Positions 22,101 through 25,100 of a stretch of DNA of 64,000 bases are shown here, piece after piece (within the stretch, counting starts at the first letter, position 1; every line of letters starts with the position of its first letter). The translations under genes and the position numbers were made by a program. The DNA comes from Paraspadella gotoi (lineage: Eukaryota > Animalia > Chaetognatha), in contig CM119267.1 in the NCBI GenBank assembly GCA_051294375.1, positions 13,029,081 to 13,093,080 on the forward strand. The letters are read 5' to 3'. The notes beneath the pieces were generated by a model. It saw only the letters and a list, made by a program, of their open reading frames with translations, had not been told where the DNA came from and ran no database searches.

Positions 22101-25100
22101 ACCCGCCGCTAAAAAAAATCGTCATTTGCAAACGTGTGAAGATTCTGACTCTATAATTCACTTTGTTGGTTCGTCGGTCTGCCCCCTCAATCTTGTCAGG
22201 CTTTCACTTATATCATGTCCGAACATCAAATTATGCGAATTGACCGTCTGTCTGGCTGTCTGTCTATCCCACCTTAGCAAAAAACTCCAATTACTCATAA
22301 TTGGATGGATGGATTGAAATGAAAATTTGTGATTAGGTAGGGAAGAGTTTGATTGAGCTGGATATGAAGTTTCGATGGAATCGTGCAAGTGGAAATAAGT
22401 TTAAATAGAAAAAAAAATCTAATTAACTATTTGAATGCCAATTACTCATGATTGTAAGAGGCGATTGACTTGAAATTTTGTATGTGGTAGGAAATTGTCT
22501 GATAAAGCAGCAAATCAAGTTTCAAATTATAATGAGTTTAAATAGAAAAACAAAAAACTGTTTCACTAATTCATTATGCTTTTTATATTAAATGTAACCG
22601 CAAAATGTATTAATTAATCTATTAATTAATTAGTTAATTAATTCATTAGTCAAATAGTTAATAAATAATTAATTAATCAGTCAATAAATAATCAATTAAT
22701 TATTCAATCAATCAATTTATTTATCTATTAATTAATTATTCAATCAATTTATTTATCAATCAATTAATTATTTAATCAATCAATCAATCAATTAAGTCAA
22801 TCATTATCGGCATTATTGTCATCGTCGCCCTCATCGTCGCTGTTGCTTTTGTCGTGGTCAGTGACGAAAATACTTAAAAACAAACATTTTGGATCAAATT
22901 AATGAATTGCTTAATTAATTAATTAAATTGAATTAAATAATTAATAAATTAATTACCGCTAATGATCGTGGGCAGATCCGACATTGTTTTCTCAAACTTG
23001 TTTTAATCTGAAAGATTTTTTTGTAGTAAAAACCAAAATCAATTTTATATCCAAATTTATATTGATTTTTTTTATTTGACTTGGCAATGAGCGGAGAAAT
23101 CTTCACAAGTTTGCAAATGACGATTTTTTTCTAGCGGCGGGTTGTTGTGTGTCACCTTGTACAGTAACTTAAAGGAAATTATTTTTTTTTCTTTTTAAAA
23201 TCTTTCTAACCGCAGCTTGGACGATCTTCTACGTGTTTGCTTCGATGCAGGGCGAAGTTCCGTGGAAAACTTGCGAAGGCTCCAACGGCACTACATTGGA
23301 GTGGGTCAGAGGAATTTGTCTGTCTCGGGTAAGGGGAACGACATTGATATTTGAAAATTGTTCTGACTTTAAACGAACTTAACAGGCAAAACGTTAAGTT
23401 AGTTTAAGAAAATAAAGGTTTTTGGAAGCAACAATTGTTTCGTCCAAAGGTTGAACGTTTCAATGAAAATTTGCAAATTACTTGTTTCACTATTTTCTAT
23501 TTTTATATTTTATGAAGGATTTACCATTTAATCTATATTCTTTAAATATTTATGTATTGGTTTCTTAAAAATTTGTTACTTATCATTATATCTAATTACT
23601 CATTTTGGGAAGGGGAAGTCAGTGTTGTCTTCTGGAAATAGAGGAAGTATGGCAACAGCCGGGTTGCCTGTGATGCCCATTGGGTTGGGGCATCTCACTG
23701 TTGGCTTTGGGGGCTTCCGACCCTCAGTGACGGTTACCCTAGGACGGTCTTGCTTTGCCAACGCAGAGGGAGGTCGTTAGGACTGTGGATGGAACACAAT
23801 GCCTGGGATGGTGTGTTCCCCCTGTGAGCCAATGGTATTGGTTAAACGATCGAGGACGTGAGGTGGTGTGAATATACCCCCACAGGAGCATCTATACAAC
23901 ACAAGGTTAGATTACAATCTATTAGAAAGTCATTAATGAAAAATCATAATATCTAATAGGCTGAACTGAAAGAGGTGGGAATGGATAATTTTTTGAGGGG
24001 GGACCAAAGTTCTATATATGTTATATATTTTTTTTTACCAATAGGGATAAGACTACCAAGTAGAATTGTATGTTCTGATAGGGATACATACTGGGGAAAG
24101 GTCTATAGGGGCACCTTTATGTCATGAATATAATTTTAAAATACTTTAATGAAAATATTTTTTTTTCTTTATTATGGTGGACTAAAATCCACCAACCGTT
24201 CATCAGCGGCCAGTTGGTGCCGGAGGCAAGTCATTGCCTCTCAACCCAAAAGGTCCGGGGTTCTAGCCCGGTGGTCGTCTGGCAGTTAACAGGGACGGGG
24301 CGCTTAACCCGCCTGTAACATGGTGTTACAGCCTGTCCGAAGCTCAGGGACTGCTTATATTGAACGGTTCTGTCATTAACACTTATCAATAATTACTGTC
24401 TCTTCATTGGTGAGCCCGACTTCCGAACACAACAGCAACAACACTTTCAGGCGACATGCCTCAACCTGGCGATGCACTTTCCGCCCACAACACATCAGGC
24501 GACATGCCTCAACTTGGTGACGAATTTTCCACCAACAACAACAATTCACTGAAGAGACGCAACAGACTTTCTCCCTACGGAGGGGGGGATGTATGGTGAC
24601 TAAAATCCACCAACCGTTCATCAGCGGTCATTGGTGCCGGAGTCAAGTCATTCGCCTCCCACCAAAAGGTCCGGGGTTCTAGCCCGGTGGTCGTCTGGCA
24701 GTTAAGAGGGACGGGGCGTTTAACCCGCCTGTAACATGGTGTTACAGCCTGATCCGAAGCTCAGGGACTGCTTATATTGAACGGTCGTCATTAACACTTA
24801 TCAATAATTACTGTCTCTTCATTATCCTAATTTTTAATTATTTCATTTTTGAATATTTTTTTATCTTTTATGTTTATACAATGGGAAGGAATGATTAAAT
24901 CCCAATTGACAATATATGAGACGATTGACAATATAAGAGTTCATTTGGTATTTAATATTTTCACTTTGATTTACAGTATAATATTCCTGTGTATAGATGA
25001 AGACAGAAGTCTTCAAAATATTATGCGCCAAATAAAAGTAATAGTATTACAATAGTTTCTTCATTAAATAAAAGCAAAAATAAAATTAACCTCTCATTCC

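Follow-up and report, generated by a model that had tools for sequence, protein, structure and literature searches.

An LTR element within an SLC6 intron

We analyzed a 64,000-nt stretch of Paraspadella gotoi CM119267.1 (hereafter the window, to whose positions all coordinates refer), in which a ten-exon SLC6 transporter gene lies on the plus strand at about 19160-51392 (best named match 69% identical). The intron that follows the exon at 23215-23328 holds, in sense orientation, a 649-bp non-coding element with long terminal repeats (LTRs) at 24173-24821 on the plus strand, here termed element A and assigned to family F1 (Table 1). Its 5' LTR (234 bp) and 3' LTR (230 bp) were 94% identical, and each combined tRNA-like A and B boxes with a putative twister ribozyme. 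In total, nine LTR copies from five families (F1-F5) were present in the window.

Element A is flanked by a 4-bp target-site duplication, and the corresponding empty site was present in the contigs of a single run, X1, the type of which is uncertain and the depths of which were not read as expression or copy number. In these contigs 24168 adjoined 24822, and 4 letters could be assigned to either side of the joint. We also observed that the element sits inside another AT-rich repeat (23921-24170 and 24822-24880), of which there are other copies without the insertion; the empty site was well covered in X1 because those copies lack element A. Among the 688 X1 contigs placed on the F1 3' LTR, 26 exited at 24821 into dissimilar flanks, and the F1 family is therefore dispersed. 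The F1 LTRs begin with TA rather than TG (24173-24177; 53434-53438), and a TG that follows the polypurine tract (PPT), ahead of the 3' LTR, is missing at the 5' end of the integrated copy, as though it had been removed on integration. The internal region (24440-24530) contains two copies of a motif of about 25 nt with a small hairpin, spaced about 60 nt apart and joined by CAA-rich linkers.

tRNA-like boxes and head of the LTRs

The original prediction, made from the sequence, had placed a tRNA-like RNA polymerase III (Pol III) promoter in every LTR, and this was borne out in part. The A-box core TGGY was found in all nine LTR copies and GTTC in eight of nine, while the distance from the A box to G53 was a tRNA-like 44-45 nt in seven and 36 nt in both F4 copies. 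The claim overreached for the B boxes of F3 and F4, which had three mismatches to the 11-nt consensus, compared with zero to two in F1, F2, and F5; the B box has T at R57 in F1 and C at A58 in F2. The box motifs that had been quoted were all present, but these seven motifs span five families and had been paired wrongly, and of the two sites that match the second A box exactly, one (19275) falls within an SLC6 coding exon. A strict scan for A and B boxes across the window returned nine pairs, five of which were the boxes described here, against a shuffle mean of 1.8 (maximum 6, 40 shuffles).

No run of four or more T occurred downstream of the A box in any of the nine LTRs, a depletion that was not significant (2 seen versus 2.26 expected; zero has P ~0.10). 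The T4 run at 24525, earlier suggested as a weak terminator, proved to be private to the element A copy, with 6412 of 6514 X1 depth units reading C, and an internal T4 run in F5 was likewise private in X1. We rejected the run at 24525 as a terminator. Termination at short U tracts is poor when no structure lies nearby (10.1101/2020.09.11.294140).

The tRNA-derived head of element A (24206-24278) folded into a 7-bp acceptor-like stem (24206-24212/24272-24278) stacked on a T-arm-like hairpin of 5 bp with a 7-nt loop (z -2.45; 5 of 200 shuffles as good), while its D/anticodon half formed a single long hairpin and no cloverleaf. We ruled out that this region is a tRNA gene: ARAGORN returned nothing at default settings, Rfam gave no tRNA match at E<=10 on 24160-24840, and a full cloverleaf with an anticodon arm was lacking. 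No parent tRNA, which the original prediction had proposed to seek by tRNA finder or covariance model, was identified with ARAGORN or Rfam. At a relaxed score of 80, ARAGORN called 24206-24279 and 53467-53538, among 33 mostly spurious calls.

A covarying stem had also been proposed to close this unit. The stem was clear in F1 (7-8 bp) and F2 (10 bp), but the two used different registers, so that between families it is replaced and does not covary at individual pairs; F3-F5 had only 4-6 bp of it. It is very unlikely, in our view, that the tRNA-like unit is kept as an RNA structure and not as a DNA promoter, either insulating the twister or being recognized by proteins of tRNA processing, ligation, or packaging. 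The acceptor-like stem and T-arm speak for such a role, as do the strong closed fold of the F2 head (z -5.0) and the fact that pairing is kept by both of the most frequent X1 variants in the 3' arm. Set against these are the missing or short closing stem in F3-F5, although the box letters persist there, and the 7-nt loop of the F1 T-arm, which is shifted by one base relative to the tRNA T-loop register, sparing the DNA motif and not the RNA geometry.

A twister fold behind the boxes

The order of elements 3' of each B box (P2, G-A, T1, P1, UAA, P2, T2, P4/L4) matched that of the type-P5 twister (Rfam RF02684), with an extra P3 hairpin. A twister directly behind the promoter in every LTR, as first described, held for the seven of nine copies in which the fold was complete, the other two being internally deleted. 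The predicted cut fell 45-59 nt 3' of the B box in the eight copies that retain the cut site.

Across the seven complete copies, 91.8% of 98 cells were paired, two-sided changes occurred in 7 of 14 pairs, both pseudoknots included, and none of 500 shuffles equaled this, in a count that comprised seven sequences, three of them from one family, that tested a structure derived from the same sequences, and that left out P1, P2, and P5 because the alignment misregisters them. For the pseudoknots, T1 was paired in 100% and T2 in 92.9% of cells, with two-sided changes present. The A that follows the predicted cut and the L1 G, which are the general acid and base of the twister (PMC11662667), were invariant in all seven. 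Within element A, the P4 of the 5' LTR was shorter by one base than that of the 3' LTR; defects in P1, P2, and P4 are tolerated in natural twisters (PMC11662667).

Compared with type P5, the window twisters have the added P3, a very short P1, and scores below the Rfam gathering score, at which the window gave no matches. The best LTR copy, from F5, reached 22.3 bits against the Twister-P5 gathering score of 37.6 (E 0.16), and neither F1 nor F2 had an Rfam twister match even at a relaxed E. The Rfam scans of the window gave no hammerhead match, and a minus-strand match to the sR38 snoRNA (22 bits against 50) was dismissed as chance. Judged by fold and covariation, the LTRs appear to carry a self-cleaving twister.

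Copies and families in the window

LTR status was firm for F1, F3, and F5, and was assigned from layout and ends for F2 and F4. A 4-bp target duplication was identified for element A, the F1 solo LTR, and F3, and none was established for F2, F4, and F5. The LTR-terminal hairpin was 36-46 nt from the A box in the other families, and F2 had an outer stem of different sequence at the place equivalent to that of F1. In F5, the second full element, the 5' LTR twister was complete and the 3' LTR twister was deleted around the cut site, yet the latter LTR kept a consensus B box. A metagenome scan with the F1/F2 pattern gave 0 matches; the F3-F5 pattern gave 71, one of which was scored by model R1, over the pattern alone and in GC-rich unrelated sequence, and no relatives were recovered.

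Table 1. Element A, its parts, and related copies in the window
Feature	Position	Strand	Remarks
5' target-site duplication, 4 bp	24169-24172	.	second copy 24822-24825
5' LTR of element A, 234 bp	24173-24406	+	starts TA, ends CA; ends identical in F1 solo LTR
LTR-terminal hairpin, AT-rich loop	24175-24194	+	27-32 nt 5' of A box; possible TATA-like site (putative role)
Outer stem, 5' arm, 9 bp	24194-24202	+	pairs with 24361-24369; encloses promoter and ribozyme
tRNA-derived head	24206-24278	+	acceptor-like stem, T-arm-like hairpin, remodelled D/anticodon half
A-box-like motif	24215-24226	+	1 mismatch to consensus
B-box-like motif	24259-24269	+	1 mismatch (R57); family majority in X1
Twister fold, type P5 with P3	24282-24354	+	conserved G-A 24294-24295; T1 strand 24296-24298; predicted cut 24305/24306
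Internal region, non-coding, 185 bp	24407-24591	+	contains T4 run 24525-24528
Primer-binding site	24408-24420	+	12 of 13 letters match the tRNA-Trp primer-binding site in Kojima 2024 Fig. S2 (PMC10886601)
Polypurine tract	24579-24589	+	ends 2 nt 5' of 3' LTR
3' LTR of element A	24592-24821	+	boxes at 24632 (A) and 24675 (B); twister 24698-24770, cut predicted at 24721/24722
Predicted cut-to-cut monomer, 416 nt	24306-24721	+	predicted from both cuts
First T5 run in flank	24831-24835	+	possible Pol III stop after 3' LTR
F4 copy b	23650-23884	-	boxes like F4 copy a; twister internally deleted; X1 empty-site joint 241 nt, without clean duplication
F5, second full element	25139-25811	-	LTRs 82% identical; tRNA-Trp primer-binding site 25556; G8 tract
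F3 solo LTR	27113-27377	+	TG..CA ends; target duplication of 4 bp; A box at 27170 fits consensus; B box weak; twister complete, P4 weak
F4 copy a	43612-43830	+	A box at 43665; B box weak and more closely spaced; compensatory T1 change and one T2 mismatch in twister; ill-defined 3' end
F1 solo LTR	53434-53666	+	same ends as element A; 4-bp duplication; boxes; complete twister
F2 LTR-like copy	56522-56747	-	boxes at 56694 (A) and 56650 (B); closing stem of 10 bp; compensatory T2 change in twister
F6 twisters	39292-39355; 39630-39694; 43909-43972; 44211-44281	-; +; -; -	Rfam Twister-P5 E 0.009, 0.12, 1.7

A predicted route from Pol III transcript to circular template

We lean slightly toward a reading in which the tRNA-derived LTR head acts as an internal Pol III promoter and the paired twisters cut out a 416-nt unit, which is probably circularized and then copied, with tRNA-Trp as primer, by a helper of the Gypsy type. 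Its support comes from the element ends, the 4-bp duplication, the empty site, the box motifs and their spacing, the twister covariation, and the absence of T4 after the A box in the LTRs. Further support comes from the box cores, invariant across five families that are otherwise unrelated, from the invariant catalytic G and A, from the sub-threshold Twister-P5 matches of F5 and of a sixth family (F6, below), and from precedents taken up below, namely tRNA-promoter elements of animals, the circle model for LTR retrozymes, tandem twisters that yield circles, and gall-wasp Helenus-2 LTRs in which, read by eye, promoter and ribozyme come in the same order.

Pol III starts some 10-20 nt before the A box; here, TFIIIC would bind the A and B boxes, and transcription would start near 24200 and read through both LTRs, meeting no T run in the family majority, as far as a flanking T run. 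The 5' twister would then remove a leader of about 100 nt and the 3' twister would create the 3' end, so that a terminator would be unnecessary. The resulting unit (24306-24721) would carry both primer-binding site (PBS) and PPT, plus the promoter and the 5' half of the ribozyme from the 3' LTR, in keeping with the earlier proposal that the 3' LTR supplies the promoter copy inside the monomer. Such a cut unit has no terminal redundancy, and ligation of its ends into a circle would therefore replace strand transfer. P2, P5, and the 9-bp outer stem may hold the ends together for ligation, and the junction of the ligated circle would rebuild an intact promoter and ribozyme. Starting from the tRNA-Trp primer, a Gypsy-type reverse transcriptase could run on around the circle and thereby rebuild both LTRs.

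A linear template transcribed by Pol III seems unlikely to us as an alternative. In that case the 3' twister would merely replace a terminator, the template would be RNA that escapes the 5' cut, and the tRNA-like leader would serve as an R region, as in Cassandra; an uncut 5' end combined with a cut in the 3' LTR would leave a terminal redundancy of about 100 nt, enough for ordinary strand transfer. The shorter P4 of the 5' LTR twister in element A would fit this course, but it is a minority variant of this copy. Similarly, F5 retains one ribozyme intact and has lost part of the other, but the deleted one is the 3' ribozyme. The lack of a special fold in the monomer also speaks for a linear template. 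Against it, LTR copying gives identical ribozymes at insertion, and we saw no feature of the context that would silence only the 5' one.

We consider it distinctly unlikely that the boxes are a relic of the insertion of a short interspersed nuclear element (SINE), with RNA polymerase II (Pol II) transcribing the elements from host introns or from a TATA box in the LTR and the two twisters excising the unit. In its favor, element A, F3, and F4 copy a all lie in sense orientation within SLC6 introns, the B boxes of F3 and F4 are weak, every LTR has near its start an AT-rich run that might serve Pol II as a TATA box, the NbRZ1 promoter is thought to be of the Pol II type (PMC12029980), and the F6 twister repeats described below lack boxes. 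Conversely, the box cores and their spacing have been kept across five families in which flanking columns are only about 32% identical. In the comparison of these families, invariant columns made up 8 of 23 inside the boxes and 0 of 67 in the flanks, in an alignment anchored on the boxes, which inflates invariance; an unanchored alignment also lined up the A-box TGG. Furthermore, only 40-60 nt lie 5' of the A box, leaving scant space for a Pol II promoter, and the LTRs are free of T4 runs.

Several observations nevertheless weigh against a Pol III-driven circle. The Pol III start, the cleavage, and the circle are predictions, no helper element was found, and the sense orientation of element A within its intron could allow passive transcription. 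The circular fold of the 416-nt monomer had a z of -1.0 against 60 shuffles and was 57% paired, in one aged copy. At three looser cut-offs the A and B box scan showed no excess (19 versus 18.6, 10 versus 9.6, and 221 versus 283.5 in shuffles). Across the 688 X1 contigs the F1 B box had no variant at 10% or above, but only 9 of 256 positions had such a variant, so this invariance does not discriminate; it is consistent with constraint and is no proof of it. On the ribozyme side, a loose twister descriptor gave 6 matches versus 0-6 in 15 shuffles, which is not above chance. To these belong points given above, namely the B boxes of F3 and F4, the F2 box without A58, the anchored column test, the non-significant T4 depletion, the covariation count on seven sequences with its omitted stems, the F1 twister that Rfam does not match, and the Pol II type envisaged for the promoter of NbRZ1, the one mapped among retrozymes.

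Relation to known elements

Element A shares with Helenus/TRIMp3 the form of a non-coding LTR element below 1.3 kb with tRNA-like A and B boxes in both LTRs, a PBS, and a PPT (PMC10886601). Helenus also has a 4-bp duplication in animals and a Gypsy-type tRNA primer, and its use of Pol III is likewise unvalidated (PMC10886601). By anatomy (short, non-coding, two LTRs, PBS, and PPT) element A agrees with Helenus throughout, and a tRNA promoter within an LTR is therefore not new. With respect to the Helenus boxes (A box TRGCY..YGG and a GGTTC B box in the LTR), F1, F2, and F5 had zero to two mismatches per box, while the B box was weak in F3 and F4. In most Helenus LTRs seen, the tRNA-like part sits near the 3' end and is followed by a T run (PMC10886601), whereas in the window LTRs it sits in the 5' half with a twister, not a T run, behind it; the F1 LTRs further differ in their TA start. 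Helenus probably has several origins (PMC10886601). The sections of PMC10886601 drawn on here name no ribozyme in Helenus, and in a text search of its Data S1, where line breaks can hide motifs, the twister loop motifs were absent from the LTRs.

By eye, we observed a type III hammerhead-like motif right after the boxes in Helenus-2_SyJa-LTR and Helenus-2_SyUm-LTR from Synergus gall wasps (Data S1 of PMC10886601), which are two of the five places with the hammerhead core motif in that data set. Loops I and II of the motif are complementary at about 12 bases, and the motif goes unremarked in the same sections of the paper. Compared by layout and not by sequence, these LTRs resemble those of the window in having tRNA-like boxes followed by a putative self-cleaving motif, no T run, and a tRNA-Trp PBS, and they differ in the motif itself, a type III hammerhead-like one instead of a twister. 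A twister in at least five diverged window families and a hammerhead-like motif in gall-wasp Helenus-2 hint that the ribozyme is interchangeable. The Ajax-1 LTRs (Data S1) were also considered, for a stretch like the 5' half of the F1 twister and for a hairpin of similar loop at the end of the internal part; neither the catalytic G nor T2 fits, and the likeness is probably chance.

Plant LTR retrozymes likewise have a ribozyme in each LTR, a PBS, a PPT, a 4-bp duplication, no coding capacity, and a monomer without an R region (PMC4918200, PMC7761336, PMC12029980), and a circle model has been proposed for them (PMC4918200). They differ in their type III hammerhead, tRNA-Met primer, structured circles of 600-1000 nt that have been shown experimentally, and a promoter thought to be Pol II (PMC4918200, PMC7761336, PMC12029980). 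Unlike plant retrozyme RNAs, the monomer predicted here is not highly self-paired, which adds to the points against a circle. The window elements would work much as plant LTR retrozymes do, but since there is no hammerhead, we did not class them as such. Animal retrozymes have been described as non-LTR hammerhead repeats (PMC7761336, PMC7229834, bioRxiv 10.64898/2026.07.22.740005), and reviews describe them as without LTR, PBS, or PPT and place LTR retrozymes in plants; type III hammerheads of insects are mentioned as unpublished (PMC7761336).

Other systems resemble parts of the arrangement. SINE-like hammerhead repeats of Schistosoma have a Pol III promoter followed by a ribozyme, with the promoter at the 3' end of the cut unit (PMC6765202). 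They are non-LTR, tandem, and of the hammerhead type, and the promoter is lost from single copies, a difficulty from which the LTR layout is free. Cassandra, a terminal-repeat retrotransposon in miniature (TRIM), has a Pol III promoter inside its LTR, but this is of 5S type, its transcript is linear with short redundancy, and no ribozyme is reported for it in the parts of PMC10886601 used here. The T-variant twisters of Perere-3 are twisters in an animal retroelement, but that element is autonomous and non-LTR with one 5' ribozyme (PMC8501958). In the Tornado cassette, a Pol III promoter is joined to two twisters that flank an RNA circularized in animal cells, and circles form in mammalian cells from tandem twisters behind a Pol III promoter (bioRxiv 10.1101/2023.07.11.548538, PMC7229834). 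Tornado is engineered, with an external U6 promoter and ribozymes that are discarded (bioRxiv 10.1101/2023.07.11.548538, PMC7229834), whereas the window elements have an internal promoter, and their ribozyme would be rebuilt in the circle.

The literature searched contained no report of a twister LTR element, nor of a Pol III promoter combined with a ribozyme in an LTR; subscription journals, Repbase reports, and the PMC11662667 supplement lay outside that search. What appears to be new is the combination of two known kinds, the tRNA-promoter LTR and the ribozyme LTR, together with a twister in an animal LTR element. We see even chances that these elements form an undescribed animal class of Pol III-driven LTR retrozymes, in which a tRNA promoter and an interchangeable ribozyme in each LTR would make up a natural Tornado cassette whose circular RNA replaces both terminator and strand transfer.

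Other repeats in the window

A model built from the seven complete twister copies of F1-F5 also found a sixth repeat family, F6, at four places (Table 1), with a weaker likeness at 54477-54643. F6 is a repeat of about 300 bp, tandem at 43850-44340, with a P5-type twister without P3; no A or B boxes were seen upstream of it. It looks like a non-LTR twister retrozyme. In addition, we noted a large, near-perfect inverted duplication at 28500-34300, inside an SLC6 intron, with its center at about 31460 and arms up to 100% complementary, which may be a foldback element or an assembly artefact. Arrays of an 18-bp unit occurred in both orientations at 46476-46750, 48010-48156, and 63908-63983 and are probably part of a dispersed element. 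The SLC6 introns carry at least six twister-bearing copies, with three LTR-family insertions in sense orientation.

Implications

Animal elements that carry LTRs, a PBS, and a PPT alongside a ribozyme would break the division of retrozymes into LTR elements of plants and non-LTR elements of animals. They would also join two separate fields, that of Pol III TRIMs, in which tRNA-type transcription is unvalidated, and that of genomic twisters, the roles of which are mostly unknown. These ribozymes are missed at standard Rfam thresholds, and the class may therefore lie unnoticed in repeat libraries that already exist, as the gall wasps suggest. Active sense twisters in the SLC6 introns would cut the pre-mRNA. 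Finally, a 650-bp element with a predicted start, predicted cuts, and a predicted monomer length makes three questions testable: whether tRNA-type LTR promoters function, what role genomic twisters play, and whether a circle may replace R-region strand transfer.

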